Made by a program: the position numbers and the translations under genes
Assembly (NCBI RefSeq): GCF_041381155.1
Contig: NC_091134.1
Coordinates: forward strand, 61,118,902 to 61,182,901
Length of the DNA stretch: 64,000 nucleotides
Reading direction: 5' to 3'
Source: Argopecten irradians
Taxonomy: Eukaryota
Shown: positions 2,344 to 64,000 of the stretch, piece by piece
Layout of the letters: every line of letters starts with the position of its first letter
How positions within the stretch are numbered: the stretch's first letter is position 1
Notes under the pieces: model-generated
Told to the model about the DNA's origin: nothing
The model's input: the letters and a program-made list of their open reading frames with translations, nothing else
Database searches by the model: none

Positions 2344-3310
2344 TTAGCTCACCTGGCCCGAAGGGCCGGTGAGCTTATGTCATGGCGCGGCGTCCGTCGT
2401 CCGTCCGTCCGTCCGTCCGTCAACATTTCCTTTAAATCGCTACTAGTCATAGAGTTCTGAATGGAATGTAACCAAATTTGGCCACAAACATCCTTGGGGG
2501 AAGGGGAACAGAACTTGTATAAATTTTGGCTCTGGTCCCCCGGGGGCAGGAGGGGCGGGGCCCAATAGGGGTAATAGAGGTAGATCCTTTAAATCGCTAC
2601 TAGTCATAGAGTTCTGAATGGAATGTAACCAAATTTGGCCACAAACATCCTTGGGGGAGGGGGAACAGACCTTGTATAAATTTTGGCTCTGACCCCCCGG
2701 GGGCAGGAGGGGCAGGGCCCAATAGGGGTAATAGAGGTAAATCCTTTAAATCGCTACTTGTCATAGAGCTCTGAATGGAATGTAACCAAATTTGGCCACA
2801 AACATCCTTTGGGGAAGGGGAACAGAAATTGTATAAATTTTGGCTCTGGTCCCCCAGGGGCAGGAGGGGCGGGGCCCAATAGGGGAAATAGAGGTAAATC
2901 CTTTAAATCGCTACTAGTCATAGAGTTCTGAATGGAATGTAACCAAATTTGGCCACAGACATTCTTTGGGGAAGGGGAACAGAACTTGTATAAATTTTGG
3001 CTCTGACCCCTGGGGGCAGGAGGGGCGGGGCCCAATAGGGGAAATAGAGGTAAATTCTTTAAATCGCTACTAGTCATAGAGTTCTGATGGATTGTAACCA
3101 AATTTGGCCATAAACATCCTTGGAAGAAGGGGAACAGAACTTGTATAAATTTTGGCTCTGACCCCCTGGGGGCGGGAGGGGTGGGGCCCAATAGGGGATT
3201 TAGAGGTTAATATCAAAATTCCTTCAGAAAAGAAACAATGAACCTGTATTCAGAACATTACTTGGCATTACAAACCAGGTGAGTGATACAGGCCCTCTGG
3301 GCCTCTTGTT
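2344..3310 (+). mobile_element. Rolling-circle-like (Helitron/Helentron-type, non-autonomous) element copy 1. It has a hairpin head, a (GTCC)n spacer, 5 monomers of a 157-bp satellite (family A) and a conserved ~105-bp tail ending GGCCCTCTGGGCCTCTTGTT. It lies in CHMP1 intron 2.
   Basis: The head TTAGCTCACCTGGCCCGAAGGGCCGGTGAGCTTATG is a 14-bp-stem hairpin with a GAA loop. It recurs at 20636 and 25948. The tail recurs at 27906-28019 and 44815-44913. There are no long TIRs and no obvious target site duplication. Confidence 0.55.
2429..3210 (+). repeat. Satellite family A: 157-bp monomer, 5 copies.
   Basis: The anchor CCTTTAAATCGCTAC recurs at 2429, 2586, 2743, 2900 and ~3055. Confidence 0.9.
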
Positions 3311-8209: not shown

Positions 8210-9215
8210 ATCATGCACCGTCCGTTGTCGTGCACCGTGCGCCGTGCGCCTGTAGCATTCTTGGATGAAGGGCTACCAAGTTTGTTCAAATGAATGACCT
8301 TGACCTTCATTCAAGATCACAGGGGTCAAATAGGCTAAAATCTTGTAAACAACTTCTTTTGAATATCTAAGAGGTCCAGAGACCTGATATTGGGCCCCTG
8401 ACATACTGGGATGATGGCCTATTAAGTTTGTTCAAAGCAATGGCCTTGATCTTCATTCAAGGTCACAGGGGTCAAAAAGGCTAAAATCTTCAAACAACTT
8501 CTTCTCAAGAACCAGAAGGCCCAGGGTATTGATATTGGGCCTGTAGCATGCTGGGATGAAGGGCTTCCAAGTTTGTTCAAATGAATGACCTTGACCTTCA
8601 TTTAAGGTCACAGGGGTCAAATAGGCTAAAATCCTTTAAACAACTTCTTTTCAAGAACCAGAAGGCTCAGGGTTCTCATATTGGGCCTGTAGCATGCTGG
8701 GATGAAGGGCTACCAAGTTTGTTCAAATAAATGACCTTGACCTTCATTTAAAGTCACAGGAGTCAAATAGGCTGAAATCCTTCAAACAACATCTTATGAA
8801 TAACTAAGAGGTCTAGAGACCTGATATTGGGCCCCTGACACGCTGGTATGAAGCGCTATCAAGTTTGTTCAAATCAATGACCTTGATCTTCATTCAAAAG
8901 ATTTCTTGAGAATAACTAGGAGGCCTAGAGACCTGATATTGGGCATGTGACCTGCTGGGATGAAGAGCTACCAAGTTTGTTCTAATGAATGACCTTGACC
9001 TTCATCCAAGGTCACAGGGGTCAAATAGGCTAAAATCTTGAAATTACTTTATTGGGCCTGTGACATGCTAGGATGAAGGGCTACCATATTTGTTTTAAAA
9101 AAATGACCTTGATCTTCATTCAGATCACAGGGATCAAAATGGTTAATATATTTAAATGACTATGTTGTATTGTGCCAATAGTCAGATGACCGTTAAGGCC
9201 CATGGGCCTCTTGTG
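8210..9215 (+). mobile_element. Helentron-like element copy 2 (5'-truncated: no hairpin, only a remnant of the GTCC-type spacer). It carries ~6 monomers of the 147-bp satellite family B and a tail ...GACCGTTAAGGCCCATGGGCCTCTTGTG.
   Basis: Same satellite family as 20770-25905. Its tail shares the GGCCC-N3-GGGCC palindrome and CTTGT terminus with the family A tails. Confidence 0.5.
8255..9130 (+). repeat. Satellite family B: ~147-bp monomer, ~6 copies.
   Basis: GGGCTACCAAGTTTGTTCAAATGAATGACCTTGACCTTCATTCAAGGTCACAGGGGTCAAA recurs every ~147 bp. Confidence 0.9.
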
Positions 9216-14491: not shown

Positions 14492-17230
14492 GGTATACAT
14501 ATATGGCAAGCCGTTTTGATATTTAATACATAATAGCTTCAGTTAAAAAGTTATTTAGCTTAAGTTAAAAAGATTTCAACTTAAGTTAAAAAGATTTCAA
14601 CTTAAGTTAAAAAGAATTCAACTTAAGTTAAAAAAACTTACATAATCAAACTTTTTTTAACTTAAGTTGAAATCTTTTCAGCTTAAGCTGAAATATTTTT
14701 AACTTAAGTTAAATAACGTGATAATGCAAAATACTCTTTTTCTAACTTAAGTTGAAAAGATTGTTGCACTATGATAATGCAAAAAGAATTTGTCTTAAAG
14801 CTGACAATGCAAGTTAAAAATTATTAAAATGATTTTTTTTTTAAAACAAGTATACTCGTTGTCCAAGAATCGTTTATGAGACATTCCCCAGTTGAGGACA
14901 GCCATTTTTGTTTTACATTCCGACGACTCACCGACCCCTTTATAAAACGCGTGAATCGACACACGTGCGCTCATTTGTGTACCCATACGCCTAGCAGTCC
15001 ACAGTATATATCACCTACAAATAGGTAAACAAATCCCTCACCTGTAAAACTATATGGGACTTTTGTTAGCAAGAAAACATGTCAACTCCTCTAAGCTGTC
15101 ATTTAGATGTTTCTCAAAATAAAATTCCAACGCAAGTGAATAGAAATCCAAACAATAATCCGTCCACATATCTCCACGTATATCATTGTACTCGATGCAC
15201 TCAACTGACCATGTACACGTGACTACGTACCTGACCCGGGCGAGCGACAACTATCAAGGACACACATGTGTCGATGTACATGTACGTGTAAAACTTGGTG
15301 TATATTGAAGTGTTTTATTAGTTCGTATTGGACATATGTTGGGATATAGCTGACAACACATTCATCTATTACATCAATGAAATATTGTCAGGTGAGTGCA
15401 GTGTTTATTTTCAATTTGACATTGTTATTTGCAATATCGGGGCATGTGTATCTGAGACAAGACATGTTTAGAATGACACACGTGTGTCAAGTGTCCCGTG
15501 CTTTATATAGGGGGTTGGCCAGTGAAGGTTACTAAGAAGAGCAAAAGAAAAATGGCTGCCACTTCCTTAGATACCACACTGTCATAACTAGGGGATGTCT
15601 CAGAAACAATTTTTGAAAAAAATATTTCGCTAATATATTTTTTTTTTAATTTCAAATGCATGTTTTTAACTTGCATTGTCAGCTTTAAGTTAGATTTCTC
15701 ATTTTTGCTTTAACACTTATTTTAACTTAAGTGTAAAAATATATCGATCGCACTTCCATCGAAATTGTGATCATGCAAAAAAGGTAAAGTCAACCGTAAA
15801 TCGCCTTTGGACTAGTCCAATATACTCATCCAATGAAAACACTCCATACATAACATCCAATCACATTACAGTTGCTGTTTCGAAACTGCTTTGCGTGCAA
15901 TGACAACTGCGTAACAAAATGGCAGCCCTCGCCCTCAATATTTATATGCTGAGTACCCATTGCACGTTGCATTTTTCTGTTAATTGTTAAGTAAAATATT
16001 TATTTAGCACATTCTCCTGTTGCTCATCTAAAAAATTGCATTTGTTAAAAAGTCAAATTAGACCAGCTACAATTAATCACAACCAAGCTGAAAAGTTTTT
16101 TTAACTTAATAAGCTGAAAAGTTTTCTTTTTACTTAAGTAGTAAAGTTTTTTTAACTTAAGTAGAAAAGTTTTTTTTATTTAAGCTGAAAAGTTTTTTCA
16201 ACTTAAGTAGAAAAGTTTTTTTAACTTAAGCTGAAAAGTTTTTTCAACTTAAGTAGAAAAGTTTTTTTAACTTCAGTAGAAATTTTTTTAACTTCAGTAG
16301 AAATTTTTTTTAACTTAAGCTGAAAAGTTTTTTTAACTTTAGTAGAAAAGTTTTTAACTTAAGCTGAAAAGTTTTTTTTAACTTAAGCTGAAAAGTTTTT
16401 TTAACTTAAGTAGAAAAGTTTTTTAACGTAAGCTGAAAAGTTTTTTCAACTTAAGAAGAAAAGTTTTTTTAACTTAAGCTGAAAAGTTTTTTTTAACTTC
16501 AGCTGAAAAGTTTTTTTAACTTAAGTAAAAAAGTTTTTTTAACTTAAGTAGAAAAGGTTTTTTTAACTTAAGCTGAAAAGTTTTTTTTAACTTAAGCTGA
16601 AAAGTTTTTTTTACTTAAGTAGAAAAGTTTATATATATACCAGGTTTTTTTAACGAAAAATTATTCGTAAGGCATTATTCAAATCCAGCACCTTTATTTT
16701 CTTACTAGCAAAGTGGCTATCTTGAAAAATAATGGAAGGCGCCATATTTACAATGTCTTCTAGACGGAAAACATATCTTGTTGGGGTTACCTTGAAGTAG
16801 TTGATTTGATACCATTCAAATATTAATCTGAATTGCTGATAGCACGTCGTCGGCCATTTTGTTTTATGCAATATGGCTGTTCAAGCTTGTCGGGAACACG
16901 TACAAATGGACTAGCCTAACCCATTATAAATATAAGGGGATGTCAGGTAGAATATTGGAAATATGATTTACTTATCTACAACCAGATTTTTTTAGCTTAA
17001 GTTGAATAAGGTTTATTTGCATTGTCACTTTTTTCAGTTTAAGTCAAAAAGATTTCAACTTAAGTCAAAAAGATTTTTTTTGACTTAAGTGAAAAAAAGT
17101 GATAATGCAAAAAAACTTTTTTTAACTTAAGTTGAAATCTTTTTAGCTTAAACTAAAATCTTTTTAACTTAAGCTAAATAACTTTTTAACTTAAGCTATT
17201 ATGTATTAAATATCAAAACGGCTTGCCATA
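14492..17230. mobile_element. ~2.74-kb non-autonomous DNA-transposon-like element with long (~230 bp) terminal inverted repeats. The TIRs are themselves built from a 22-bp AACTTAAGYTGAAAAG(T)n minisatellite. An internal 16080-16640 array of the same minisatellite is present.
   Basis: Left end tatggcaagccgttttgatatttaatacataatagctt... is matched by the reverse complement of the right end ...aagctattatgtattaaatatcaaaacggcttgccata. The match extends through the minisatellite blocks. No transposase ORF is visible. Target site duplication is unresolved. Confidence 0.6.
16080..16640. repeat. 22-bp minisatellite (aacttaagctgaaaagtttttt), ~25 copies, internal to the long-TIR element.
   Basis: Direct tandem repeat. 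The same unit in opposite orientation lies at 14530-14760 and 16990-17190. Confidence 0.85.
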
Positions 17231-17787
17231 TTAAAGTCACATATGTGTTGGCTTATGTGCATATGCATATACCTATGTGTGTAGTAATCATTATGTCAGT
17301 AATAATTGTTCACAGTTTTAGATAACACATTTGTTGTAATTAATTAGTACCCGTCAAATTACAAAATAAATTAACATAGTGTGAAAAAAGTCAGCCATAT
17401 TCAAACACTTTTCGTACTCGTGGCATATCGATCTGTCACAGTATGGGATTCACAAGACTCACTAGTGATTATACACATTCCATATGACATGTAATATATT
17501 ATGGAATACAATGGGATGTAAGCATTACCGTGTTGAAAAAAATTGTTTAATTCATAAAATGGAGGGGGGGGGGGGGGGTTGGCATTTATATAATTTCAAC
17601 TCCTTTATCAGAAGAGGGTGTGTGTATAAGGATTAGGGAAGGGATGCTTATACATGAAATTATGACGAATATGCACCATTGCATGTGTTTTTAAGCTTTG
17701 ACTTCATTGAAATCAATAAGGTTAAACACTTCAAATAAAAAATCATTTGTACCCGGAAATAAATTATACGTTGTAGTATGTTAAACC

Positions 17788-18738
17788 TAGTCCGCTAAAC
17801 CTGCCTATATTATTAGGCTCTTTTTTTTTTATTATTTTTTTTTTTTTTTTTGCCTAATATATAGTCAGCTCGCGGTACCTCTTAAAAATGTGAAATCGTA
17901 GGCCAGATTTGGCCTACGCTACGTCAGCGGCATATTTCTAATATATCGTCCATGCAATGCCGGGAAAACGTACACATACCTTTATATTGGGATCTTATGT
18001 ACTCCTTTGCCCCCATGTTACATCCCATTTATGAAATTAAACAACTGTGTACAATGAAATACTTCCAAGACCCTTCTATTTCACACATTTGTAATGGCCG
18101 CCGTATACACATTTAGTAGAGCAAACGGCAGCCAATCAACTTCGCTTCCGGTTTTATTTTTAAATATCCACGTGTAGTTGAAAGATAAACAAAATTCTAC
18201 CGTGTATATGCTACATGTATATGCAACGTGAATATCGCGAAAGTTATGCGGTGCCAGCAATAGTCGTGTTCAATTTGAATATTTGACAACATGCCGTGTA
18301 TGTCGACCATGATTTTACTTTAAAAACTCTAACTGGCTAGCATTTTGTTTATCTTTCAACTACACGTGGTTTTTTAAAAATAAAACCGGAAGCGAAGTTG
18401 ATTGGCTGCCGTTTGCTCTACTAAATGTGTATACGGCGGCCATTACAAATGTGTGAAATAGAAGGGTCTTGGAAGTATTTCATTGTACACAGTTGTTTAA
18501 TTTCATAAATGGGATGTAACATGGGGGCAAAGGAGTACATAAGATCCCAATATAAAGGTATGTGTACGTTTTCCCGGCATTGCATGGACGATATATTAGA
18601 AATATGCCGCTGACGTAGCGTAGGCCAAATCTGGCCTACGATTTCACATTTTTAAGAGATACCGCGAGCTGACTATATATTAGGCAAAAAATTTTTTTAA
18701 AAAAAAGCCTAATAATATAGGCAGGTTTAGCGGACTAC
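17788..18738. mobile_element. hAT-like foldback / long-TIR non-autonomous element (~950 bp). It has ~415-bp arms at >95% identity and a ~140-bp central loop, flanked by 8-bp direct repeats GTTAAACC.
   Basis: Left arm 17788-~18204 is matched by the reverse complement of ~18344-18738. The termini are TAGTCCGC...GCGGACTA. GTTAAACC is at 17780-17787 and 18739-18746. Confidence 0.6.
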
Positions 18739-19208
18739 GTTAAACCCTCCTATATCAACTACAAAATATGTACACAATACACTTGTATTTACCAGGTTTT
18801 AGATACAGAATGAGCTGAATAAAAAATAGCTTCAAACACAGGTGTCTGACTTGTTTCACAAAAATATGTGTAAGTATATAAACTTGTTTAGTTCATATAT
18901 AATGAATAAAGTACTACATGATATTTTTGCGAAACCATTAAGCCAGATGCACCTAAAAGTCACCTATATATTACATAGATCAATGGGTGTCTGTATTCAG
19001 TAATAATTCATATGAACCTAAATAGCACATTTGAATTAACATATCTTTTCTTTTATTATCTTCCAGTTTCCCTTTCCAATGCCTTCTATGTCAAGATGAG
19101 GAACACAATTTTCTTCATATATATTAAGTATTAAGCTAGAGTAAAGACAACTTGAAGTACCCAATACACCAAACAGAAGAGCCCTTAGGTCATAATTATC
19201 ACCGTACC

Positions 19209-19340
19209 ATGGCAACAGTATTTGGAGGCTGTCATGTTGTCCTTGACCTGACAACAAGTGTTAGCTTTAAAAGGAAACAGGAAATCCGTAAGAAGATCAC
19301 AGAAAATGACGGTGTTGTCTCCTATATTGTGACAAAAAAG
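19209..19340 (+). CDS. PARP4: PARP4 (vault PARP) exon 1 with the start codon: MATVFGGCHVVLDLTTSVSFKRKQEIRKKITENDGVVSYIVTKK. This is the N-terminal BRCT domain.
   Basis: ATG in a good Kozak context (accATGG) and the first in-frame ATG. It aligns to human PARP4 MVMGIFANCIFCLKVKYLPQQQKKKLQTDIKENGGKFSFSL. The donor is AAG|gtaagt. Confidence 0.75.
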
Positions 19341-19772: not shown

Positions 19773-19971
19773 AGTACCCATGTTATCTGCAATGACCCCG
19801 CTAAAGCAGATATTAGCTACAAATGTAAAATGGCCCAGAAGTATGGCATTCCAGTTGTATCTGTCAACTTCTTGTATGACTGTGTGGAGAAAGGGAGACT
19901 ACTCAGTACCGATGACTACCTGGTTATCGGCAAAACAAAGTCTCAGAAACTCAAATCCGGTAGAATTGCAG
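19773..19971 (+). CDS. PARP4: PARP4 exon 2 (rest of the BRCT domain), ending in phase 1: STHVICNDPAKADISYKCKMAQKYGIPVVSVNFLYDCVEKGRLLSTDDYLVIGKTKSQKLKSGRIA.
   Basis: Acceptor tcctatag|AGT and donor CAG|gtaaat. It aligns to human THIILDNADVLSQYQLNSIQKNHVHIANPDFIWKSIREKRLLDVKNY. The overlapping ORF-track frame (19756..) is a different, non-homologous frame. Confidence 0.8.
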
Positions 19972-20134
19972 GTAAATAATCATTAATCATTGTTTTATTT
20001 TGATATTGCAAATTCATGATAACGTACCTTTTAAAATTGTGTTAAAAGTGGTTGTGTAATTAGCAACATCCCCCCCTCCTGCTTGCGCAATTTTCCATGT
20101 TAAGGTAAACTTGATTTGGATGATTTTTTTTTAG

Positions 20135-20769: not shown

Positions 20770-23700
20770 ACTTGGAGACCTAGAGTCCTGAAATTTGACT
20801 TATAGCATGCTGGGATCAAGGGCTACCAATTTTGTTCGAATGAATGACCTCGACCTTCCTTCAAGGTCACAGGGGTCAAATAGGCTGAAATATCTTGTTA
20901 AGACTTCTGCTTCATAACCAAGAGGCCTAGAGACCTGATACTTGGCATGTAACATGTTGGGATGAAGGGCTACCAAGCTTGTTTCATTCAAGGTCACGGG
21001 GGTCAAATAGGCTAAAATCTTTAAACAACTTCTTCTTAATAACCAAGAGACCTAGGGACCTGATATCAGGCCTGTGACATGCTGGGATCAAGGGCTACCA
21101 AGTTTGTTCAAATGAATGACCTTGACCTTCATTCAAGGTCACAGGGGTCAAAAAGGCTAAAATCTTTAAACGACTTCTTCTTAATAACCAAGAGGCCTAG
21201 GGACCTGATATTAGGCCTGAGGCATGCTGGGATCAAGGGCTACCAAGTTTGTTCAAATGAATGACCTTGACCATCATTCAAGGTCACAGGGGTCAAAAAA
21301 GGCTAAAATCTTTTAAAGATTTCTTCTTAATAACCAAAGAGCCTAGGAACCTGATATTAGGCCTGTGACATACTTGGATCAAGGGCTACCAAGTTTGTTC
21401 AAATGAATGACCTTGACCCTCATTCAAGGTCACAGGGGTCAAAAAGGCTTAAATCTTTAAACGACTTCTTCTTAATAACCAAGAGGCCTAGGGACCTGAT
21501 ATCAGGCCTGTGACATGCTGGGATCAAGGGCTACCAAGTTTTGTTCAAATGAATGACCTTGACCTTCATTCAAGGTCACAGGGTAAAAAAGGCTAAAATC
21601 TTTAAAGGACTTCTTCTTTATAACCAAGAGGCCTAGGGACCTGATATTGGGCCTGAGGCATGCTGGGATCAAGGGCTAACAAGTTTGTTCAAATGAATGA
21701 CCTTGATCTTCATTCAAAGTCACAGGGGTCAAAAAGGCTTAAATCTTTAAACGACTTCTTCTTAATAACCAAGAGGCCTAGGGACCTGATATCAGGCCTG
21801 TGACATGCTGGGATCAAGGGCTACCAACTTTGTTCAAATGAATGACCTTGACCTTCATTCAAGGTCACAGGGGTAAAAAAGGCTAAAATCTCTAAACGAT
21901 TCTTCTTAATAACCAAGAGGCCTAGGGACCTGATATTGGGCCTGAGGCATGCTGGGATCAAGGGCTACCAAGTTTGTTCAAATGAATGACCTTGATCTTC
22001 ATTCAAAGTCACAGGGGTCAAAAAGGTTAAAATCTTTAAACGACTTCTTCTTAATAACCAAGAGGCCTAGGGACCTGATATTAGGCCTGTGACATGCTGG
22101 GATCAAGGGCTACCAAGTTTGTTCAAATGAATGACCTTGACCATCATTCAAGGTCACAGGGGTCAAAAAAGGCTAAAATCTTTTAAAGATTTCTTCTAAA
22201 TAACCAAAGAGCCTAGGAACCTGATATTAGGCCTGTGACATACTTGGATCAAGGGCTACCAAGTTTGTTCAAATGAATGACCTTGACCCTCATTCAAGGT
22301 CACAGGGGTCAAAAAGGCTTAAATCTTTAAACGACTTCTTCTTAATAACCAAGAGGCCTAGGGACCTGATATCAGGCCTGTGACATGCTGGGATCAAGGG
22401 CTACCAAGTTTTGTTCAAATGAATGACCTTGACCTTCATTCAAGGTCACAGGGTAAAAAAGGCTAAAATCTTTAAAGGACTTCTTCTTTATAACCAAGAG
22501 GCCTAGGGACCTGATATTGGGCCTGAGGCATGCTGGGATCAAGGGCTAACAGGGGTCAAAAAGGTTAAAATCTTTAAACGACTTCTTCTTAATAACCAAG
22601 AGGCCTAAAGACCTGATATTAGGCCTGTGACATGCTGGGATCAAGGGCTACCAAGTTTGTTCAAATGAATGACCTTGACCTTCATTCAAGGTCACAGGGG
22701 TCAAAAATGCTAAAATCGTTAAACAATTTCTTTTTAATAACCAAAGAGACTAGGAACCTGATATTAAGCCTTTGACATACTGGGATCAAGCTACAAAGTT
22801 TGTGCAAATGAATGACCTTGACCTTCATTCAAGGTCACAGGGGTCAAAAAGGCTAAAATCTTTAAATGACTTCTTCTTAATAACCAAGAGGCCTAGGGAC
22901 CTGATATCAGGCCTGTGACATGCTGGGATCAAGGGCTACCAAGTTTGTTCAAATGAATGACCTTGACCTTCATTCAAGGTCACAGGGGTCAAAAAGGCTA
23001 AAATCTTTAAACGATTTCTTCTTAATAACCAAAGAGCCTAGGAACCTGATATTAAGCCTGTGACATACTGGGATCAAGGGCTACAAAGTTTGTTCAAATG
23101 AATGACCTTGACCTTCATTCAAGGTCACAGGGGTCAAAAAGGCTAAAATCTTTAAATGACTTCTTCTTTATAACCAAGAAGCCTAGGGACCTGATATTGG
23201 GCATGTGACATGCTGGGATCAAGGGCTACCAAGTTTGTTCAAATGAATGACCTTGACCTTCATTCAAGGTCACAGGGGTCAAAAAGTCTAAAATCTTTAA
23301 ACGACTTCTTCTTAATAACCAAGAGGCCTAGGGACCTGATATTGGGCCTGAGGCATGCTGGGATAAAGGGCTACCAAGTTTGTTCAAATGAATGACCTTG
23401 ATCTGCATTCAAGGCTAAAATCTTTAAACAGTTTCTTCTTAATAACCAGACAGCCTAGGGACCTGGTATTGGGCCTGTGGCATGATGAAATCAAGGGCTA
23501 CCAAGTTTGTTCAAATGAATGACCTTGATCTTCATTCAAGGTTACAGGGATAAAAAAAGGCTTAAATCTTTAAACGACTTCTTCTTAATAACAAAACAGC
23601 CTAGGGACCTGATATTAAGCCTGTGACATACTGGGATCAAGGGCTACAAAGTTTGTTCAAATGAATGACCTTGACCTTCATTCAAGGTCACAGGGGTCAA

Positions 23701-25905
23701 AAAGGCTAAAATCTTTAAATGACTTCTTCTTTATAACCAAGAGGCCTAGGGTCCTGATATTGGGCATGTGACATGCTGGGATCAAGGGCTACCAAGTTTG
23801 TTCAAATGAATGACCTTGACCTTCATAAAGGACTTCTTCTTTATAACCAAGAGGCCTAGGGACCTGATATTGGGCCTGAGGCATGCTGGGATCAAGGGCT
23901 ACCAAGTTTGTTCAAATGAATGACCTTGATCTTCATTCAAAGTCACGGGGGTCAAAAAGGCTTAAATCTTTAAACGACTTCTTCTTAATAACCAAGAGGC
24001 CTAGGGACCTGATATCAGGCCTGTGACATGCTGGGATCAAGGGCTACCAACTTTGTTCAAATGAATGACCTTGACCTTCATTCAAGGTCACAGGGGTAAA
24101 AAAGGCTAAAATCTCTAAACGATTCTTCTTAATAACCAAGAGGCCTAGGGACCTGATATTGGGCCTGAGGCATGCTGGGATCAAGGGCTACCAAGTTTGT
24201 TCAAATGAATGACCTTGATCTTCATTCAAAGTCACAGGGGTCAAAAAGGTTAAAATCTTTAAACGACTTCTTCTTAATAACCAAGAGGCCTAAAGACCTG
24301 ATATTAGGCCTGTGACATGCTGGGATCAAGGGCTACCACGTTTGTTCAAATGAATGACCTTGACCTTCATTCAAGGTCACAGGGGTCAAAAAGGCTAAAA
24401 TCGTTAAACAATTTCTTTTTAATAACCAAAGAGACTAGGAACCTGATATTAAGCCTTTGACATACTGGGATCAAGCTACAAAGTTTGTGCAAATGAATGA
24501 CCTTGACCTTCATTCAAGGTCTCATGGGTCAAAAAGGCTAAAAGTCTTTAAATGACTTCTTCTTAATAACCAAGAGGCCTAGGGACCTGATATCAGGCCT
24601 GTGACATGCTGGGATCAAGGGCTACCAAGTTTGTTCAAATGAATGACCTTGACCTTCATTCAAGGTCACAGGGGTCAAAAAGGCTAAAATCTTTAAATGA
24701 CTTCTTCTTTATAACCAAGAGGCCTAGGGACCTGATATTGGGCATGTGACATGCTGGGATCAAGGGCTACCAAGTTTGTTCAAATGAATGACCTTGACCT
24801 TCATAATGACCTTGACCTTCATTCAAGGTCACAGGGGTCAAAAAGTCTAAAATCTTTAAACGACTTCTTCTTAATAACCAAGAGGCCTAGGGACCTGATA
24901 TTGGGCCTGAGGCATGCTGGGATCAAGGGCTACCAAGTTTGTTCAAATGAATGACCTTGATCTTCATTCAAGGTCACAGGGGTATAAAAGGCTAAAATCT
25001 TTAAACAGTTTCTTCTTAATAACCAGACAGCCTAGGGACCTGGTATTGGGCCTGTGGCATGATGAAATCAAGGGCTACCAAGTTTGTTCAAATGAATGAC
25101 CTTGATCTTCATTCAAGGTTACAGGGATAAAAAAAGGCTTAAATCTTTAAACGACTTCTTCTTAATAACAAAACAGCCTAGGGACTTGATATTGGGCCTG
25201 TGGCATGCTGGGATTAAGGGCTACCAAATTTGTTCAAATGAATGACCTTGACCATCATTCAAGGTCATAGGGGTCAAAAAGGCTAAAATCCTTTAAACGA
25301 CTTCTTCTTAATAATCAAGAGGCCTAGGGACCTGATATTGGGCTTGTGGCATGCTGGAATCAAGGGCTACCAAGTTTGTTCAAATGAATGACCTTGATCT
25401 TCATTCAAGGTCACAGGGATCAAAAAGGCTAGAATCTTTAAACGTCTTCTTCCTAATAACCAAACAGCCTAGGGACCTGGTATTGGGCATGTGGCATGCT
25501 GGGATCAAGGGCTACCACGTTTGTGCAAATGAATGACCTTGACCTTCATTCAAGGTTACAGGGGTCAAAAAGGCTAAAATCTTTAAAAGACTTCTTTATA
25601 CCAAAACAGTCTTGGGACCTGATATTGGGCCTATGGCATGCTGGGATCAAGGGCTACCAAGTTTGTTCGAATGAATGACCTTGACATCATTCAAGGTCAA
25701 AGGGGTAAGATAGGCTAAAATCTTTAAACAACTTCTTAATAACCAAGAGGTCTTGAGACCTGTTATTGGGCATGTGACATGTTGGGATGAAGCGCTACAA
25801 AGTTTGTTCAAATGAATGACCTTGACTTTCATTCAAGGTCACAGGGGTCAAATAGGCTAAAATCTTTAAATGACTCCTTTTTAATAACCAAGAGGCAAAG
25901 AGGCC
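20770..25905 (+). repeat. Satellite family B: ~147-bp monomer, ~35 copies, with local deletions (~22540, ~23400, ~23820) and a small duplication (~24790).
   Basis: Same monomer as 8255-9130. The ORFs MLGSRATKFVQMNDLDL... in the ORF track are repeat artefacts. Confidence 0.9.
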
Positions 25906-25947: not shown

Positions 25948-28019
25948 TTAGCTCACCTGGCCCGAAGGGCCGGTGAGCTTATGTCATGGCGCGGCGTCCG
26001 TCGTCCGTACGTTGTCCATCCGTCATCCGTCTGTCAACATTTCTTTAAATCGCTACTAGTCATAGAGTTCTGCATGGATTGTAACCAAATTTGGCCACAA
26101 GCATCCTTGGGGGAGGGGGAACAGAACTTGTATAAATTTTGGCTCTGACCCCCCGGGGGCAGGAGGGGAGGGGCCCAATAGGGGAAATAGAGGTAAATTC
26201 TTTAAATCGCTACTTGTCCTAGAGTTCTGCATGGATTGTAACCAAAATTAGCCATAAACATATCTTTGGGGGAAGGGGAACAGAACTTGTATAAATTTTG
26301 GCTCTGATCCCCCAGGGGCAGGAGGGAGGGGGCCCAATAGGGGAAATAAAGGTAAATCCTTTAAATCGCTACTGGTCATAGAGTACTGAATGGAATGTAA
26401 CCAAATTTGGCCACAAACATCCTTGGGGGAAGGGGAACAGAACTTGTATAAATTTTGGCTCTGGCCCCCCGGAGGCTGGAGGGATGGGGCCCAATAGGGG
26501 AAATAGAGGTAAATCCTTTAAATCGCTACTAGTCATAGAGTTCTGCATGGAATGTAACCAAATTTGGCCAGAAATATCCTTTGGAGATTAGAACTGAGTT
26601 TGTATAAATTTTGGCACTGGTCCCGGGGCGCAGGAGGGGCGGGGCCCAATAGGGGAATTATAGGTAAATCCTATAAATCGGTACTTGTCCTATAGTTCTG
26701 CATGGATTATCACCAAATTTGTCCACAAACATCCTTGGGGGTAGGAGAACAGAACTTGTATAAATTTTGGCTCTGACCCTCCGGCGACAGGAGGGGGAGG
26801 AGCCCAATAGAGGAAATAGTGGTAAATCCTTTAAATCGCTACTTGTCCTAGACTTCTGCATGGATTGTAACCAAATTTGGCAACAAACATCCTTGGGGGA
26901 AGGGGAACAGAACTTGTATAAATTTTGGCTCTGACCCCCCGGGGGCAGGAGGGGCGGGGCCCAATAGGGGAAATAGAGGTAAATTCTTTAAATCGCTACT
27001 TGTCCTAGAGTTCTGCATGGATTGTAACCAAAATTAGCCACAAACATCCTTGGGGGAGGGGGAACAGAACTTGTATAAATTTTGGCTCTGACTCCCCAGG
27101 CAGGAGGGGCGGGGCCCAATAGGGGAAATAGAGGTAAATTGTTTAAATTGCTACTTGTCCTAAAGTTCTGCATGGATTGTAACCAAAATTAGCCATAAAC
27201 ATATCCTTGGGGGATGGGGAACAGAAGTTGTATAAATTTTGGCTCTGATCCCCCAGGGGCAGGAGGGGCGGGGCCCAATAGGGGAAATAAAGGTAAATCC
27301 TTTAAATCGCTACTGGCCATAGAGTTCTGAATGGAATGTAACCAAATTTGGCCACAAACATCCTTGGGGGAAGGGGAACAGAACTTGTGTAAATTTTGGC
27401 TCTGGCCCCCCGGAGGCTGGAGGGGTGGGGCCCAGTAGGGGAAATAGAGGTAAATCCTTTAAATCGCTACTAGTCATAGAGTTCTGCATGGAATGTAACC
27501 AAATTTGGCCAGAAATATCCTTGGGAGATTAGAACTGAGTTTGTATAAATTTTGGCACTGGTCCGGGGGCGCAGGAGGGGCGGGGCCCAATAGGGGAATT
27601 ATAGGTAAATCCTATAAATCGGTACTTGTCCTAGAGTTCTGCATGGATTGTAACCAAATTTGGCCATAAACATCCTTGGGGGTAGGAGAACAAAACTTGT
27701 ATAAATTTTGGCTCTGACCCTCCGGGGACAGGAGGGGGTGGAGCCCAATAGAGGAAATAGTGGTAAATTCTATAAATCGCTACTTGTCCTAGAGTTTTGC
27801 TTGGATTGTGACCAAATTTGGCCATAAACATCCTTGTGGGAAGGAGAACAGAACTTTGGCTCTGACCCCCTGGGGACAGGAGGGGTGGGGCGCAATAGGG
27901 GACTTAGATGATAATATTAAAATTCCTTCAGAAAAGAAACAATGAACCTGTATTCAGAACATTACTTGGCATTACAAACCAGGTGAGCGATACAGGCCCT
28001 CTTGGCCTCTTGTTGTTAA
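25948..28019 (+). mobile_element. Helentron-like element copy 4: hairpin head, (GTCC)n spacer, ~12 monomers of satellite family A and the conserved tail ending GGCCCTCTTGGCCTCTTGTT.
   Basis: The head at 25948-26040 is near-identical to 2344-2428. Array is 26041-27905. Tail 27906-28019 is near-identical to 3205-3310. Confidence 0.55.
26041..27905 (+). repeat. Satellite family A: 157-bp monomer, ~12 copies.
   Basis: Same monomer as 2429-3210. The minus-strand PAPRG-rich ORFs are artefacts. Confidence 0.9.
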
Positions 28020-34347: not shown

Positions 34348-34531
34348 CACAAGTGTGAAGTATTCCCAGGTCAGTAAAAGCCGAGGCACCAGGATGATGC
34401 TGGTCAACAAAGTGGCTCTGGGTAAATGTATGGACCTATACAGCCACGACCAGACCCTTACTCATGCTCCAGATGGTTACTCCAGTGTTCACGGTGTGGC
34501 TAGCACATCCAATAAATCATCAGACTTCACC
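34348..34531 (+). CDS. PARP4: PARP4 exon 11 (catalytic domain): (S)TSVKYSQVSKSRGTRMMLVNKVALGKCMDLYSHDQTLTHAPDGYSSVHGVASTSNKSSDFT.
   Basis: Acceptor catttag|C and donor ACC|gtaagc. It matches human TSIKYSHPGETDGTRLLLICDVALGKCMDLHEKDFSLTEAPPGYDSVHGVSQTASVTTDFE. Confidence 0.88.
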
Positions 34532-35060
34532 GTAAGCCATCATCCAAATTTAAATTTATACTTTCCTTACTTTTTACACTAGGTAGGATGTAGATATTGA
34601 TTGTGCAATTTGAAGGAAATGTTCTTAACAAACAAATAAATAACAAATTATAAATAACAAACTTACATCTTCATAATATTATTATGATTGAAACATTTAA
34701 GCATAAACTGTCCTCGTGTGGAATCTATGGTCTATATAGATGCCAAAGCTTTGCAGACAATCTTTATAATGTGTACTATCACAAGTGACATCATACTGGT
34801 CATGTTTTGGGTGTCATTTATACCCACATAGACTTTACTTAATTTGGCTTAGTTAGTTTATATAGTAGAAGTGGCAAGTGAATTTCAGTATTTATGCTTA
34901 TGTTGAAGATTTCAACTTAGGATAGACCAAAGAAAAATATCCCAGAAATTTGATTATGTGTGAGTGTATTGGCTTAGATTCATAACCTTTTTTTTTTTTT
35001 TTTTTTTTTACTTTATCCTGATTTATGCAATAACAAACTCCAAATACTGTTCACCTGTAG

Positions 35061-35560: not shown

Positions 35561-35697
35561 ATTTGAAAGATGTGAAAGATGTCTTGGACCCTATGTCAAA
35601 GGTCAAACCTGGACTGGTGGCTGATGGGAAGGAGGTCAATCCAGTAGAACTAGAGAAACTGGATGTGTTTGCTAAACTAATGGACTTGGTGGCTGAG
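35561..35697 (+). CDS. PARP4: PARP4 exon 13: (N)LKDVKDVLDPMSKVKPGLVADGKEVNPVELEKLDVFAKLMDLVAE. The last 24 nt and the donor seed the downstream 51-bp satellite.
   Basis: Acceptor ttatag|AT and donor GAG|gtatgt. LDVFAKLMDLVAE followed by VKVFQVY (exon 14) aligns to human LEDVHIKGRIIDTVAQ followed by VIVFQTY. Any later satellite copy offers an identical in-frame donor, so the true donor could be a later copy. Confidence 0.65.
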
Positions 35698-36968
35698 GTA
35701 TGTAGTAAACTGAATGTCTTGACTAAACTAATGGACTTGGTGGCCGAGGTATGTAGTAAACTGGATGTGTGTTGACTAAACTAATGGACTTGGTGGCCGA
35801 GGTATGTAGTAAACTGAATGTGTTGACTAAACTAATGGACTTGGTGGCCGAGGTATGTAGTAAACTGGATGTGTTGACTAACTAATGGACTTGGTGGCCG
35901 AGGTATGTAGTTAACTGGATGTGTTGACTAAACTAATGGACTTGGTGGCTGAGGTATGTAGTAAACTGGATGTGTTGACTAAACTAATGGACTTGGTGGC
36001 TGAGGTATGTAGTTAACTGAATGTGTTGACTAAACTAATGGACTTGGTGGCTGAGGTATGTAGTAAACTTTGTTTTGGCTAAACTAATGGACTTGGTGGC
36101 CGAGGTATGTAGTAAACTGAATGTGTTGACTAAACTAATGGACTTGGTGGCCGAGGTATGTAGTAAACTGAATGTGTTGACTAAACTAATGGACTTGGTG
36201 GCTGAGGTATGTAGTAAATTGGATGTGTTGACTAAACTAATGGACTTGGTGGCCGAGGTATGTAGTAAACTGAATGTGTTGGCTAAACTAATGGACTTGG
36301 TGGCCGAGGTATGTAGTAAACTGAATGTGTTGACTAAGCTAATGGACTTGGTGGCTGAGGTATGTAGTAAACTGGATGTGTTGACTAAACTAATGGACTT
36401 GGTGGCCGAGGTATGTAGTAAACTGAATGTGTTGGCTAAACTAATGGACTTGGTGGCTGAGGTATGTAGTAAACTTTGTTTTGGCTAAACTAATGGACTT
36501 TGTGGCTGAGGTATGTAGTAAACTGATTGTTTTGGCTAAACTAATGGACTTAGTGGCAGAGGTACGTAGTAAACTTTGTTTTGGCTAAACTAATGGACTT
36601 GGTGGCTGAGGTATGTAGTAAACTTTGTTTTGGCTAAACTAATGGACTTGGTGGCCGAGGTATGTAGTAAACTTTGTTTTGGCTAAACTAATGGACTTGG
36701 TGGCTGAGGTATGTAGTAAACTGTATGTGTTGGCTAAACTAATGGACTTGGTGGCTGAGGTATGTAGTAAACTGTATGTGTTGGCTAAACTAATGGACTT
36801 GGTGGCAGAGGTATGTAGTAAACTGGATGTGTTGACTAAACTAATGGACTTGGTAGCTGAGGTATGTAGTAAACTGAATGTGTTGACTAAACTAATGGAC
36901 TTGGTGGCTGAGGTATGTAGTAAACTGGATGTGTTGACTAAACTAATGGACTTGGTGGACGAGGTATG
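35674..36968 (+). repeat. 51-bp satellite, ~25 copies (aaactaatggacttggtggcYgaggtatgtagtaaactgRatgtgttgRct). It is derived from the 3' end of PARP4 exon 13 plus its GTATGT donor. The unit is 17 codons and fully open in the exon frame.
   Basis: The first copy is exon 13 itself. The ORF-track proteins are KLMDLVAEVCSKLNVLT reiterated. Each unit carries a GAG|gtatgt donor-like site. Confidence 0.9.
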
Positions 36969-36970
36969 TA

Positions 36971-39842
36971 CAGTACCTGAACCGTTTAACGTTCCCAGCC
37001 TAACGCAAACGCAACGCAAAAAAATAGTTCGTTAGCTAACGCTAACGATTGCTAACGCTAACGATTAACGATTAACGATAAACGATTAACGCAATACCGG
37101 CTAACGATTAACGATTAACGCAAAACGCAAAACGATCGGCTATGATTAACCGGAAATACCGTTGTTATAATCACGGACACGGCTTGACGGTAAATGAATT
37201 ACGGATCTTGATGTTTTGAAATACAAACGAAAGTACAAGAAAAACTGGAGTATGTTCGGGATTAAAGTTTCTGTATATCATATAAACATTTGCCTATGAA
37301 AACTATATGGACACGATGAAGTCAAAGACGACAGTACTCGATGCAAAGTTTCCATGTACAAAAATGAATGACATGTGCAACTGTATGTGTGGAGAAAGAA
37401 TGGTATTATTCTAAAGTGTCATATTTACCCGGTATTTTAAGAAATAACAAATTGTTACAGCATCTCTTTAGTGATAATCACACAATGAAGTCAAACACGA
37501 CTGTACTCGATACGAAGTTTCCACTTCACACGTACGTTTACAAATTACTTGTACAACCGTATGTATTAAGAGAGAATTGTGTTATTCTAAGTGTCATATT
37601 TGTCCGACATTTTAAGAAATAACAAACAAATTGTTACAACAACACTTTATTGATAATATTACCGTCACAATGTCATAACTTTAGTGAAGCGATCAGGCGT
37701 ATACTGGTACATGTACTTTAAATGGAAACATTTTCACACATTTAAAATGCTGTAAATCAAATTTCCATCTATATGTTTGATTTATATTATCGATGTGTCA
37801 TAACTCAACAATGGTAATAATTAACATCTTATAGTGTTTCTCGCATCAATCACAAGTTTCAGGGTTTTTTCCAGATTGTCGAAAGGCTCTTCCGCTTATC
37901 ATGGAAAATTGTATTCTCGGAATATTTGTTTCATAACGGATTACACGCTGTATATAATTAGGGTGTGCATTCATAAAAGCTCATTGCTTACAATTGACTA
38001 GGCATCGATTTTAGGGTCGCACATGTACATTTACAAATACACGTACATACGCCATAGCTAGTGTAATAAAGATTGAACATTTGAATTCGTGTTTCGCCAT
38101 TTGCAGTTCTCTCATTTTATAGTTCATGCATATAATACAGATATAAAGAACGGAAATATTTCACTTCCAGTTATCTATATTCAAATTAAGTCAAATTATG
38201 CATAATCATTGATGACAACAACGATGAAGATAGTGATGCACATGCATACATGTATGTACACTGAAGATAACTGTAAAATTGCATTGCGACAATTTTCTAC
38301 GTATATTTGTAACTGGCGTAAGAAATATAGTTATTTGATCACATTTCACACCAAGCAACTCTTCAATTTACAGTTTAAACAAATTAAATATTCATACAAT
38401 GTATAAGTGTAAGCTAATTCATTCCAACGTAATCTATAGGAAAGCATATTGCCCACATCAAAACTTTGAAATACGACAGTATATATATGTCCGTGAAATG
38501 TACTGTCACAGTGTATATTTTTGTACGGGGCACAGGTAAGTTGGGTATAAAGTTAATCTCCCTCCCAAGAAGGGAAAGTGTTAATTACAGGTGAACTCCG
38601 CCCGTGGCCAGCTACAGGGGGTCGACACAAGGTAACACCAGTCGTGACCTATATACCTGTACAGGTAAAATACCCGTGCGCGTCACGCTGGGAATTGAAA
38701 AGATTCCAGGTACAAATAACAACGAACACATGTGAGAAGGTGCCCGTGACTGTCCAGTTTTTATTGATATGAGCTTAAAGGTATACCCGTGCCTGATTTG
38801 ACACGCGTACAGTACGTGTGAAGGCTTTAATACAATGTAACGTACCCCTGCACAGTTCGAATTCTCTACACGTGTTAACATGTAGTTGTAGGTATACTCG
38901 TACATTACAAACATTTACATCATTTTATTCCATTTTCATATATATATGTAGATACAAGTACTAATTAATTGCGTTTAAAAATATGTACATGTAAATGCCA
39001 AATCTCACCTATTCCCCGTGTTCAAACTCGTCATGATTTTTAAATTTCACGAATTTATTTACAAATCTCCCGAGTCTTTTTTAGCGTTCTTCATACATTG
39101 ATGAAATTTAACATAACAAGAAGAATATGATGCAGCGTGTCTGTAATAACATTTTTATATTTTTTATTATCTGTTTTAGCTATATTCTTGTGTAATCTTT
39201 CAGCTGTCGTGGATTCTTTCTAAAATAATGCTTTTGACATTAATATTCTGTAAGACAGTTTCGTTAATATTTGAATTGCTTTCGCAGAAATCATAGTAAC
39301 TACAAACATATATATGATATATGTTTCTGATAATAATAATAAGAAGTTTTGAAATGTCATTTAAATACGAGTATTTCAGAACGTTTTCACGGATACATAT
39401 GTAGGAGCGTACGTCATGTATATGCGATCTTGTTACTGTACATATTTTTATTTCAACCACATCTAACAAACATATATACATCCAAAAGAGATATAAAATG
39501 CAATACAATACACTTTATTCATATTATTTTTTTTTCATAGATGTTATGATAATCGCTTCTTCACGAAGCGGTAAACGTAATATCATATCCGGATCGTCAA
39601 AGCATCTCACCGGCATTTGGTTCTATTTTTAGTGGCTAACGTTAGCGGAAGTGGGTCCTGCTAACGATTAACGCAAACGATTTCAAACGCAAACGATTGT
39701 AAACGCAACTAACGATTAACGATTGCTAACGCAAACGATAACGATTAACGATAAACGATTGCTAACGCTAACGATTGCTAACGGAAATAACGCAAACGCA
39801 AACGAAACGCAAATTTGGGAACGTTAAACGGTTCAGGTACTG
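36971..39842. mobile_element. Tc1/mariner-like non-autonomous DNA transposon (2872 bp) inserted into the 51-bp satellite. It has 27-bp perfect TIRs CAGTACCTGAACCGTTTAACGTTCCCA, a TA target site duplication and subterminal (TAACG)n-like direct repeats at both ends.
   Basis: The satellite unit gaggtatgTAgtaaactg is split as gaggtatgTA[element]TAgtaaactg. The TA is at 36969-36970 and 39843-39844. No intact transposase ORF. An internal ~150-bp x2 direct repeat lies at 37316-37640. Confidence 0.7.
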
Positions 39843-40370
39843 TAGTAAACTGTATGTGTTGGCTAAACTAATGGACTTGGTGGCCGAGGTATGTAGTAAA
39901 CTGTATGTGTTGGCTAAACTAATGGACTTGGTGGAAGAGGTATGTAGTAAACTGAATGTGTTGACTAAACTAATGGACTTGGTGGCTGAGGTATGTAGTA
40001 AACTTTGTTTTGGCTAAACTAATGGACTTGGTGGCAGAGGTATGTAGTAAACTGGATGTGTTGACTAAACTAATGGACTTGGTGGCTGAGGTATGTAGTA
40101 AACTTTGTTTTGGCTAAACTAATGGACTTAGTGGCCGAGGTATGTAGTAAACTTTGTTTTGGCTAAACTAATGGACTTAGTGGCCGAGGTATGTAGTAAA
40201 CTTTGTTTTGGCTAAACTAATGGACTTGGTGGCTGAGGTATGTAGTAAACTTTGTTTTGGCTAAACTAATGGACTTGGTGTCTGAGGTATGTAGTAGGCT
40301 AAAATGTATTTGTTGACTAAACTAAGGACTTGATGGCCGAGGTACATAGTAAACTGGATGTGTTGGCAGA
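39843..40370 (+). repeat. Continuation of the 51-bp exon-derived satellite (~10 copies, degenerating at the 3' edge).
   Basis: Same unit and phase as 35674-36968, resuming exactly at the interrupted position. Confidence 0.9.
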
Positions 40371-41019: not shown

Positions 41020-42050
41020 AGTTTTTACATCAGCGTTATATCTGGTTGTAATCTGTATTTTACATCAGTGTTGTATCTGGTTGTAATCTGTATTTTACAT
41101 CAGCATTATATCTGGATGTAATCTGTATTTTACATCAGCGTTGTATCTGGTTGTAATCTTTATTTTACATCAGCATTATATCTGGATGTAATCTGTATTT
41201 TACATCAGCATTATATCTGGATAATGTAATTTGTATTTTACATCAGCGTTGTATCTGGTTGTAATCTGTATTTTACATCAGCATTATATCTGGATGTAAT
41301 CTGTATTTTACATCACTATTATATCTGGTTGTAATCTGTATTTTACATCAGCGTTGTATCTGGTTTTAATCTGTATTTTACATCAGCATTATATCTGGAT
41401 GTAATCTGTATTTTACATCAGCGTTGTATCTGGTTGTAATCTGTATTTTACATCAGCGTTGTATCTGGTTGTAATCTGTATTTTACATCAGCGTTGTATC
41501 TGGTTGTAATCTGTATTTTACATCAGCGTTGTACCTGGTTGTAATCTGTATTTTACATCAGCGTTGTATCTGGTTGTAATCTGTATTTTACATCACCGTT
41601 ATATATCTGGTTGTAATCTGTATTTTACATCAGCGTTGTATCTGGTTGTAATCTGTATTTTACATCACTGTTATATCTGGTTGTAATCTGTATTTTACAT
41701 CAGTGTTGTATCTGGTTGTAATCTGTATTTTACATCAGCGTTGTATCTGGTTGTAATCTGTATTTTACATCAGCGTTATATCTGGTTGTAATCTATATTT
41801 TACATCACTGTTATATCTGGTTATATCTGGTTGTAATCTGTATTTTACATCAGCGTTGTATCTGGTTGTAATCTGTATTTTACATCAGCGTTGTATCTGG
41901 TTGTAATCTGTATTTTACATCAGCGTTATATCTGGTTGTAATCTGTATTTTACATCAGCGTTGTATCTGGTTGTAATCTGTATTTTACATCACCGTTGTA
42001 TCTGGTTGTAATCTGTATTTTACATTAGCATTGTATCTGATTATAATCAG
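41020..42050 (+). repeat. 35-bp satellite (gtaatctgtattttacatcagcgttgtatctggtt), ~29 copies. It starts ~80 bp after the PARP4 exon 14 donor.
   Basis: Direct tandem repeat with R/Y point variants. Confidence 0.9.
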
Positions 42051-42665
42051 TATAACTCAAAACCTTATAATGATACTACACCTAATTTGATGTTTTAGTT
42101 TCTTTGAATTATCTTCAGTTTTAATGTAAACTTTACCACCAAAACTTCTTTCTCAATATTGCTTTTCAAGTCCAAAGTTTAAAGGTCAAGGTCACTGTTA
42201 CTAAAATAGAAAATCATGTTCTGTTTATTAACTGATTGGCAAGTTATTATATTTTTTTGTGGAATTCTTGTCCTTATACTATCTGTCTATACTGATGAAT
42301 GGTTCAATAGTTTCACTCTGAATTGAATTAATAATTTTTAAGTGCAACTAGCGCAGACACAGAAGTATTTTAGACATGAAAATCACTGTGGTATAATAAA
42401 TAATGGAATTTATCATATGCACATACATACAGTATCCATATTTGCAATATTCTTATTGATATTTTAGCGTGAGAATTCATGGATATATGTATTCAGCATC
42501 ATTTTTCAATAGCTAGCTTTTAACACTTTGTGGTGAAGCTACCTTGAGTTAGGCCATCTTTAGATGAGTGATTGCTCTATTGTGTATCATGGCCTTTGTA
42601 CATGACAGATAGGGAATCTCATCCGATTAATTTGTTTAACCTGAACTTTGTATGTTTGTGAACAG

Positions 42666-44002: not shown

Positions 44003-44913
44003 TAATATTTGGGAAATAGAGGTAAATCCTATAAATCCCTACTTGTCCTTGAGTTCTGTATGGATTGTAACCAAATTTGGCCACAAACATCCATGGGGGG
44101 AAAGGGAACAGAACTTGAATAAATTTTGGCTCTGATCCCCCGGGGGCAGGAGGGGCAGGACCCAATAGGGGAAATAGAGGTAAATCCTTTAAATTGCTAC
44201 TTGTCAAAGAATTCTACATGGATTGTAACTGAATTTGGCCAGAAACATCCTTGAGGAAAGGGGAATAGAGTTTGTATAAATTTTGGCTCTGACCCCACAG
44301 GGGGCATGAGGGGCAGGGCCCAATTGTGGACATAGAGGTAAATCCTTTAAATTGCTACTTGTCATATAGTTCTACATGGATTGTAACCGAATTTGGCCAG
44401 AAACATCTTTGAGGAAAGGGGAATAGAGTTTGTATAAGTTTTGGCTCTGAACCACCAGGGGGCATGAGGGGCAGGGCCCAATTGGGGACATAGAGGTAAA
44501 TCCTTTAGATTATTACTTGTCATAGAGTTCTGCATGGATTGTAACCAAATTTGGCCAGAAGCATCCTTTGGGTAAGGGGGTTAGAGCTTGTATAAATTTT
44601 GGCTCTGACCCCGGGGGCAGGAAGGGCGGGGCCCAATAGAGGAAATAGAAGTTGGTTCTTTAAATCGCAACTAGTCATAGAGTTCTGCATGGATTGTTAC
44701 CAAATTTGACCAGAAACATCTTTGGGGGAAGGGGATTAGAGTTTGTATAAATTTTGGCTCTGATCCCTTTGGGGGAAGGATGTGTGGGGCTTGATAGGGA
44801 AAATAGAGGTAAATATTTAAATTCCTTTAGAAAAGAAACAATGAATCTGTATTAAGAACATAACTTGGCATTACAAACCAGATGAGTGATACAGGCCCTC
44901 TGGGTCTCTTGTT
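44003..44913 (+). mobile_element. Helentron-like element copy 5 (5'-truncated, no head): ~5 monomers of satellite family A plus the conserved tail ...GGCCCTCTGGGTCTCTTGTT, in PARP4 intron 16.
   Basis: Monomers and tail are homologous to 2429-3310 and 26041-28019. Confidence 0.5.
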
Positions 44914-63600: not shown

Positions 63601-64000
63601 TGTGACCTTGTCAAGTATGACACAGCTGACACTGACCCAGTATATAGATGTTATGTGACCTTGTAAAGTATAACACACTGAACTGGCCAGTATATAGATG
63701 TTATGTGACCTTGTCATGTAGGACATACTGTGTTGGTCAGGTATATATATAGTTTTATGTGACCTAGTCATGTATGACACACACTGACCTGGTCAGTTTA
63801 TAGAATGTTTATGTGACCTTGGTAAAAGTATGACACACTGGACTGACCAGTATATGAATGTTATGTGACCTTGTCAAGTGATGGACATAACTGAACTGGC
63901 CAGTTATATAGATGTTTATGTGACCCTGTGTCCACGTATGATCACAATGACTGGCCACTATATAGATGTTAAGTGACCTTGTCAGTGTATGACACACTGA
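45688..64000 (+). repeat. 49-bp satellite (cagtatatagatgttatgtgaccttgtcaagtatgacatactgactggc), ~370 copies across at least 18.3 kb, filling the PARP4 intron after exon 18 and running off the window. It is highly homogeneous to ~57.2 kb and increasingly degenerate from there to the end.
   Basis: Period 49 was verified at several points. Variant classes (caag/catg, ggcc/ggtc, gtgatcc) are locally clustered. Beyond ~58.6 kb ccccactcccc-type derived units dominate. The MSYMTRSHNIYIL ORFs are artefacts. Confidence 0.95.

Follow-up and report, generated by a model that had tools for sequence, protein, structure and literature searches.

A palindromic unit of 950 bp, located at positions 17788-18737 of the 64,000-nt stretch of Argopecten irradians DNA analysed here (hereinafter, the window), very probably represents a single insertion of a foldback (long-terminal-inverted-repeat) element, a non-autonomous member of the class II (cut-and-paste) transposons. 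This reading follows from the combination of a bounded palindrome, exact and symmetric ends, a secure flanking repeat, unrelated and unique flanks, and the lack of coding capacity, which together bear out the description of this locus in the initial annotation as a foldback element. [quoted passage not shown] Foldback and long-TIR non-autonomous DNA transposons are frequent in repeat-rich animal genomes; the element is an ordinary kind of insertion and an otherwise unrepresented family member of a known element type.

Global alignment of the left half of the unit with the reverse complement of the right half delimits two inverted arms, of 412 nt on the left (17788-18199, plus strand, beginning with TAGTCCGCTAAACCTGCC) and 400 nt on the right (18338-18737, minus strand, reverse-complementary to the left arm and ending with GGCAGGTTTAGCGGACTA), which enclose a unique, non-coding central loop, or spacer, of 138 nt (18200-18337). 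A repeat finder reported core arms at 17846-18199 and 18338-18691, each 354 nt long, 99% complementary and 138 nt apart, as well as a terminal inverted pair at 17780-17826 and 18699-18745. Over the full length, the arms are 94.9% identical across 412 columns when gaps are counted (blastn), and ~99% identical outside of a homopolymer tract. The palindrome is real and lies at the coordinates given in the initial annotation. In the gap-free 354-nt block, the left and right arms are distinguished by four substitutions (17878 C/T, 18165 T/A, 18167 T/A and 18196 T/G); the only other difference is in a T-rich tract (GGCTC-T10-ATTA-T17-GCC on the left, GGC-T8-A7-T6-GCC on the right), with a tract-length difference of 12 nt between the arms. 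The outermost 32 nt of both arms are identical and the termini are perfect (TAGTCCGC...GCGGACTA). In the whole window, each strand has exactly one occurrence of the 22-nt terminus TAGTCCGCTAAACCTGCCTATA, where chance would yield none. Folded as single-stranded DNA, the element forms one long hairpin of -487.6 kcal/mol, compared with -97.9 +/- 5 kcal/mol for shuffled sequences.

Two smaller secondary structures are nested within each arm. Near the left terminus, on the plus strand, a small hairpin (17801-17868) pairs CTGCCTATATTATTAGGC with GCCTAATATATAGTCAG around the T-rich tract at 17820-17851; this region, with its mirror at ~18669-18724, is the sole part of the element in which the arms differ in length as well as in sequence. 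Further inward lies a mini-hairpin (17897-17918, plus strand; mirror at 18619-18640) with perfect 9-nt stems and a 4-nt loop, CGTAGGCCA-GATT-TGGCCTACG. The arms consist of complex sequence without tandem subrepeats: TRF and the repeat finder reported only the T-tract in the arms, and TRF additionally detected a weak 13-nt repeat in the loop.

The octamer GTTAAACC is found on both flanks of the element, in agreement with the 8-bp direct repeats of the initial annotation, but only one of the two copies abuts a terminus. The left copy (17780-17787), which is preceded by T, directly adjoins the left terminus, whereas the right copy (18739-18746) is one base away from the right terminus, with a single extra C (18738), overlooked in the initial annotation, in between, so that the junctions read ...GTAGTA-T-GTTAAACC / TAGTCCGC ... 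GCGGACTA / C-GTTAAACC-CTCC.... The chance of observing an 8-nt flanking repeat in any of nine registers is ~3.5e-4 against a Markov-1 background; this background was simulated from the local non-satellite sequence because real positions of the window are inflated by satellite periodicity. Past the repeat, the flanks are unrelated to each other, and they are unique in the window except for a region of 21-23-bp tandem repeats further upstream. A search of the window with the joined flanks did not reveal a paralogous empty site.

The extra C at 18738 allows the duplication to be read as 7, 8 or 9 bp long. In the 8-bp register (GTTAAACC), the right end of the element is one base longer than the left end. 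The 9-bp register aligns TGTTAAACC with CGTTAAACC, which match at eight of the nine positions and leave perfect ends; this reading, (T/C)GTTAAACC, is possible and requires one transition after insertion. Finally, the 7-bp register, GTTAAAC, yields the ends C-TAGTCC and G-TAGTCC, which are mismatched at the outermost base only. GTTAAAC belongs to the 2% of 7-mers in the window that are perfect odd palindromes, and transposon target motifs have been reported as palindromes centred on the duplication. Since the symmetry centre of GTTAAAC falls on a base, it suits a 7- or 9-bp cut rather than an 8-bp cut; given that this is a single site examined after the fact, the odd cut length suggested by the palindrome centre is only a hint. 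The TTAA core of the repeat was also considered in terms of a piggyBac/Kolobok insertion, and this reading was rejected, given that the repeat runs past TTAA on both sides and the ends implied by such a cut are not inverted repeats.

The element is non-coding. Its open reading frames, the longest of which span 54-59 aa, have no match in Pfam, and neither a tRNA nor an Rfam match, even at E <= 1, was detected within its bounds, on which grounds an RNA-gene explanation was rejected. The search for relatives covered several collections. In the 64-kb window, no second copy was found with the 22-nt terminus (up to three mismatches) or by blastn with a word size of 7. Exact scans with two 20-24-mers yielded no match in metagenome contigs, and exact scans of bacterial and archaeal genome contigs (two patterns) and of viral contigs (one pattern) were equally negative. 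There was likewise no match in exact queries of an assembly index with the 54-aa ORF of the arm and one flanking ORF, in a word and HMMER search of a protein collection with a 70-aa open frame of the arm, or in a full-text search with sequence strings of the element and of the window satellites. No transposase partner or autonomous copy was seen in the window, which we counted against the foldback-element reading, as we did the fact that a single copy is known, the duplication being out of clean register with the termini, and the arms being free of subterminal tandem repeats, which most described foldback and long-TIR MULE families possess.

The element stands out from its surroundings in CpG content, with an observed/expected ratio of 1.22, compared with 0.37 for the window, 0.27 for the 472-bp interval between the element and the downstream gene described below, and 0.25 over 5 kb on its right side. 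The gap-free block contains 15 CpGs per arm, and none of the four substitutions between the arms falls in a CpG. Undecayed CpG in a CpG-depleted genome suggests either recent arrival or protection from methylation; accordingly, the best reading is that the element is young or unmethylated, and the CpG content independently points to youth. The recent origin proposed in the initial annotation is therefore upheld as an appearance, conveyed jointly by the near-identical arms and the undecayed CpG.

From this one copy, a superfamily can be proposed only tentatively; our estimates place a Mutator/Foldback-like origin first, as a choice that falls short of even odds, followed by a hAT origin, which we regard as doubtful, by some superfamily other than those named here, which is improbable, and by a P/Galileo-like origin, which is more improbable still. 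The initial annotation singled out hAT, and the long arms together with the odd-centred palindromic target argue against doing so; Mutator-like/Foldback and P/Galileo-like elements fit at least as well. Under the hAT reading, a non-autonomous element would have been inserted by a hAT transposase that cut GTTAAACC with an 8-bp stagger, and the extra C would be either a terminal base of the element or a later 1-nt change. The exact octamer on each flank and the TAG start on which this assignment was based stand, and the element shares them, as well as its small size and non-coding nature, with hAT non-autonomous elements and MITEs. The hallmarks of hAT are 8-bp TSDs, YARNG termini and NTNNNNAN targets. 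TAGTC agrees with YARNG at four of the five positions, with C for G at position 5, as is likewise the case in the published hAT family hobo_AC (TAGGC), and the T at position 2 of GTTAAACC agrees with NTNNNNAN, as far as one site can. However, position 7 of the duplication is C rather than A (again, one site against a consensus), the 8-bp register leaves the two sides unequal by one base, and the centre of the palindrome lies on a base, whereas an 8-bp cut calls for a centre between two bases. Furthermore, inverted arms of ~400 nt contrast with the 11-16-bp TIRs of the hAT families tabulated in the literature; a foldback derivative could have extended its arms, so that their length lowers the probability of a hAT assignment without excluding it. 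With the offset register, the TAGTC terminus, the C at position 7 and the ~400-nt arms taken together, membership in hAT is not demonstrated.

The tentatively favoured alternative, a derivative of the Mutator-like/Foldback superfamily, can accommodate the junctions in two ways, either through a 9-bp duplication, (T/C)GTTAAACC, followed by a transition, or through an 8-bp duplication produced by a transposase that cuts at both 8 and 9 bp. Such flexibility has precedent in Muta1, which generated both 8- and 9-bp TSDs in experiment and appears to cut outside of the TIR. Among Aedes MULE families, TSDs of 8-9 bp are found in all 14 and TIRs longer than 100 bp in 12 of the 14; the Tm1 and Tetris foldback elements have TSDs of 8-10 bp, and most foldback elements have been placed in Mutator. 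The element under study would fit this pattern in that its flanks agree at eight of nine positions with perfect termini, its arms of 412 and 400 nt are long TIRs by the >100-bp measure, and its odd-centred palindromic target is compatible with a 9-bp cut. At the level of overall anatomy, it resembles Drosophila FB, Meloidogyne Tm1, Drosophila virilis Tetris and the Aedes Muta1 derivatives, which have non-coding copies that consist of two long inverted arms around a short middle, are flanked by 8-10-bp duplications and are mobilised in trans. Short tandem subrepeats make up most of the arms of these elements, whereas the arms here consist of unique, complex sequence; in particular, the latter lack the subterminal tandem repeats of Tm1, Tetris and 10 of the 12 long-TIR Aedes families, a feature that is common in the group, yet not universal. 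Also somewhat unexpected is a mismatch in the 9-bp duplication of an element whose arms differ by only ~1%. To our knowledge, a TAG... terminus has not been described for MULEs, which further counts against this reading. The third candidate, a two-TIR element of the P superfamily similar to Galileo, with a 7-bp duplication GTTAAAC and ends mismatched at the outermost base only, has the advantage that this is the only register that is exact and symmetric without a later mutation. Galileo has TIRs of 0.3-1.2 kb, many of its copies consist of two TIRs and a spacer, as here, and P/Galileo TSDs are 7-8 bp long with the palindromic target GTANTAC, whose GT..AC frame is shared by the perfect odd palindrome GTTAAAC. 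Nonetheless, GTTAAAC agrees with only four of the six specified positions of that consensus, the eighth matching base of the flanks would have to be a coincidence, the arms are not internally repetitive as those of Galileo are, and Galileo has been reported only from Drosophila, whereas the genome analysed here carries a vault-PARP gene. We know of no vault-PARP gene in insects, and this counts against a Galileo-like element in the present genome. A different kind of explanation, that the palindrome is an assembly artefact (a chimeric read of palindromic form) or an inverted duplication that arose locally, without a transposon, through template switching during replication, is highly unlikely. 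Chimeric long reads are known to yield palindromes, and the element is known from a single copy, but the structure is internal and has definite limits, its symmetric ends being exact and flanked by a direct repeat that has the low chance probability given above (P ~3.5e-4); the two flanks are unique and share no similarity, the 138-nt centre is unique, and four substitutions and 12 nt of tract length separate the arms, whereas a fold-back read would presumably mirror its own flank, with neither spacer nor duplication. On these structural grounds alone, an assembly artefact is unlikely.

We therefore favour a transposon insertion and would annotate the element as a class II insertion with the superfamily left unassigned rather than as hAT. 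Non-autonomous two-TIR foldback copies with the same anatomy and TSDs of 7-10 bp have been described for Tm1, Tetris, Muta1 derivatives and Galileo. In the mechanism that we propose, a transposase encoded elsewhere in the genome would bind the outer ends TAGTCCGCTAAACC..., which are identical, and probably also the subterminal hairpin motifs (GCCTA/TAGGC), and would excise the 950-bp unit. The excised unit would then be joined to a staggered cut, probably of 7-9 bp, centred on the near-palindromic GTTAAAC, and repair of this cut would produce the flanking GTTAAACC repeat; before insertion, the empty site would have read GTAGTA(T/C)GTTAAACCCTCCTATATC. The near-identity of the ~400-nt arms may reflect either a recent origin of the palindrome or of the insertion, or arms that correct each other. 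Together with the intact CpGs, it suggests that a transposase active on this family is present in the genome now or was present recently.

The initial annotation further described the palindrome as a fragile and recombinogenic site, which is overstated for arms separated by a 138-nt spacer, given the effect of spacer length on such repeats in yeast. In yeast inverted Alu repeats, lengthening the spacer from 12 to 100 bp cuts recombination ~300-fold, and lengthening it from 12 to 200 bp cuts gross rearrangements ~20-fold. By analogy with yeast, the 138-nt spacer would make the element comparatively stable, although folding back would still be possible in the single-stranded state.

A gene for a PARP4-like protein (vault PARP) occupies positions 19210-41000 on the plus strand, with its start codon 473 bp downstream of the end of the element. 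The first coding exon (19210-19340) opens with an accATGG start, ends at an AAG/GTAAGT donor (19340/19341) and encodes the first half of a BRCT domain, the second half of which is encoded by exon 2 (~19773-19972), such that the two exons jointly specify the domain. Further downstream, also on the plus strand, are a PARP catalytic exon (34355-34582) and an exon for a VIT domain (~40.7-40.9 kb); relatives of the latter in the protein collection are at most 82% identical, and some are named poly[ADP-ribose] polymerase. The introns of the gene are large and filled with tandem arrays. A location close to the 5' end of a gene is of the type that cut-and-paste elements often use, and the position just upstream of the PARP4-like gene makes the element a candidate cis-regulatory insertion. 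In this respect, the inner part of the right arm carries a row of promoter-like motifs (18363-18616, plus strand; mirrored in the left arm) that resembles a TATA-less promoter, with CACGTG at 18363, CCGGAAG at 18386, ATTGG at 18401, GCCAT at 18439, TATAAA at 18551 and TGACGT at 18611. The element accounts for two of the seven CACGTG sites, two of the three CCGGAAG sites and two of the 14 TGACGT sites in the window; given that the motifs were picked by eye, no fair probability can be attached to the row, which is suggestive only. It is conceivable, but very unlikely in our estimation, that the CpG-rich arms serve as an unmethylated promoter of the PARP4-like gene or as the source of a ~400-bp hairpin RNA that feeds small-RNA silencing. 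If this were the case, each arm would carry a promoter-like module with E-box, ETS, CCAAT, YY1-like, TATA-like and CRE motifs in a row, the PARP4-like promoter might be bidirectional within an otherwise CpG-poor region, and a promoter-carrying foldback element would have been domesticated at the gene for a vault component.

Satellites are very abundant in the window, which is eukaryotic. Just upstream of the element lies a second, larger inverted repeat (14501-17231), with arms of ~270 nt (14501-14777 and 17231-16972), which start with (A)TATGGCAAGCCGTTTTG and are 94% complementary over the outer ~118 nt. Inward, the arms run into 21-bp tandem subrepeats (CTTAAGTTAAAAAGATTTCAA), and a 23-bp array (16085-16630) is enclosed between them. 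This is the classical foldback architecture, with arms composed of tandem repeats of short units; the flanks would fit a duplication of TA (TA/TGGCAAGCC...GGCTTGCCA/TA), no longer duplication being visible, and the repeat has no sequence similarity to the 950-bp element. Within the same region, positions 17000-17200 gave sub-threshold Rfam matches to mir-1422 and mir-2797 on both strands (25-31 bits, compared with gathering thresholds of 60-74), which are almost certainly hairpin look-alikes arising from the 21-bp tandem and inverted repeats and not miRNA genes.

At the other end of the window, a 49-bp satellite (GTATGACATACTGACTGGCCAGTATATAGATGTTATGTGACCTTGTCAA) extends from 45692 to 64000, that is, over at least 18 kb, and runs off the window end. 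It is 97% homogeneous at 45.7-51.6 kb and decays progressively toward 64 kb, with a strand bias (GC skew of ~+0.16) that is maintained throughout. Satellite families of ~145 bp and ~157 bp recur at 2428-3211, 26043-27856 and 44011-44823, and at 8248-9167 and 20856-25896. The 157-bp satellite contains a long open frame, exemplified by a 145-aa ORF at 2754-3191 with the repeated motif GPAPPAPRG...KFIQ; this frame may be either a pseudo-ORF derived from the repeat or part of a repeated gene. Within the PARP4-like gene, the intron that separates the PARP exon from the VIT exon holds two arrays, at 35656-36970 and 39835-40367, of one shared 49-51-bp unit (...CTAAACTAATGGACTTGGTGGCTGAGGTATGTAGT), apparently in the same orientation, and, between them, a stretch (37037-39813) that contains (A)ACGATT-type short repeats and reaches a CpG observed/expected ratio of 1.2-1.9; the arrays and the CpG-rich stretch (35656-40367) may constitute a large composite repeat or element. 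Directly after the VIT-domain exon, a 35-bp minisatellite (TTTTACATCAGCGTTGTATCTGGTTGTAATCTGTA) spans 41023-42053, with 29 copies at 90% identity.
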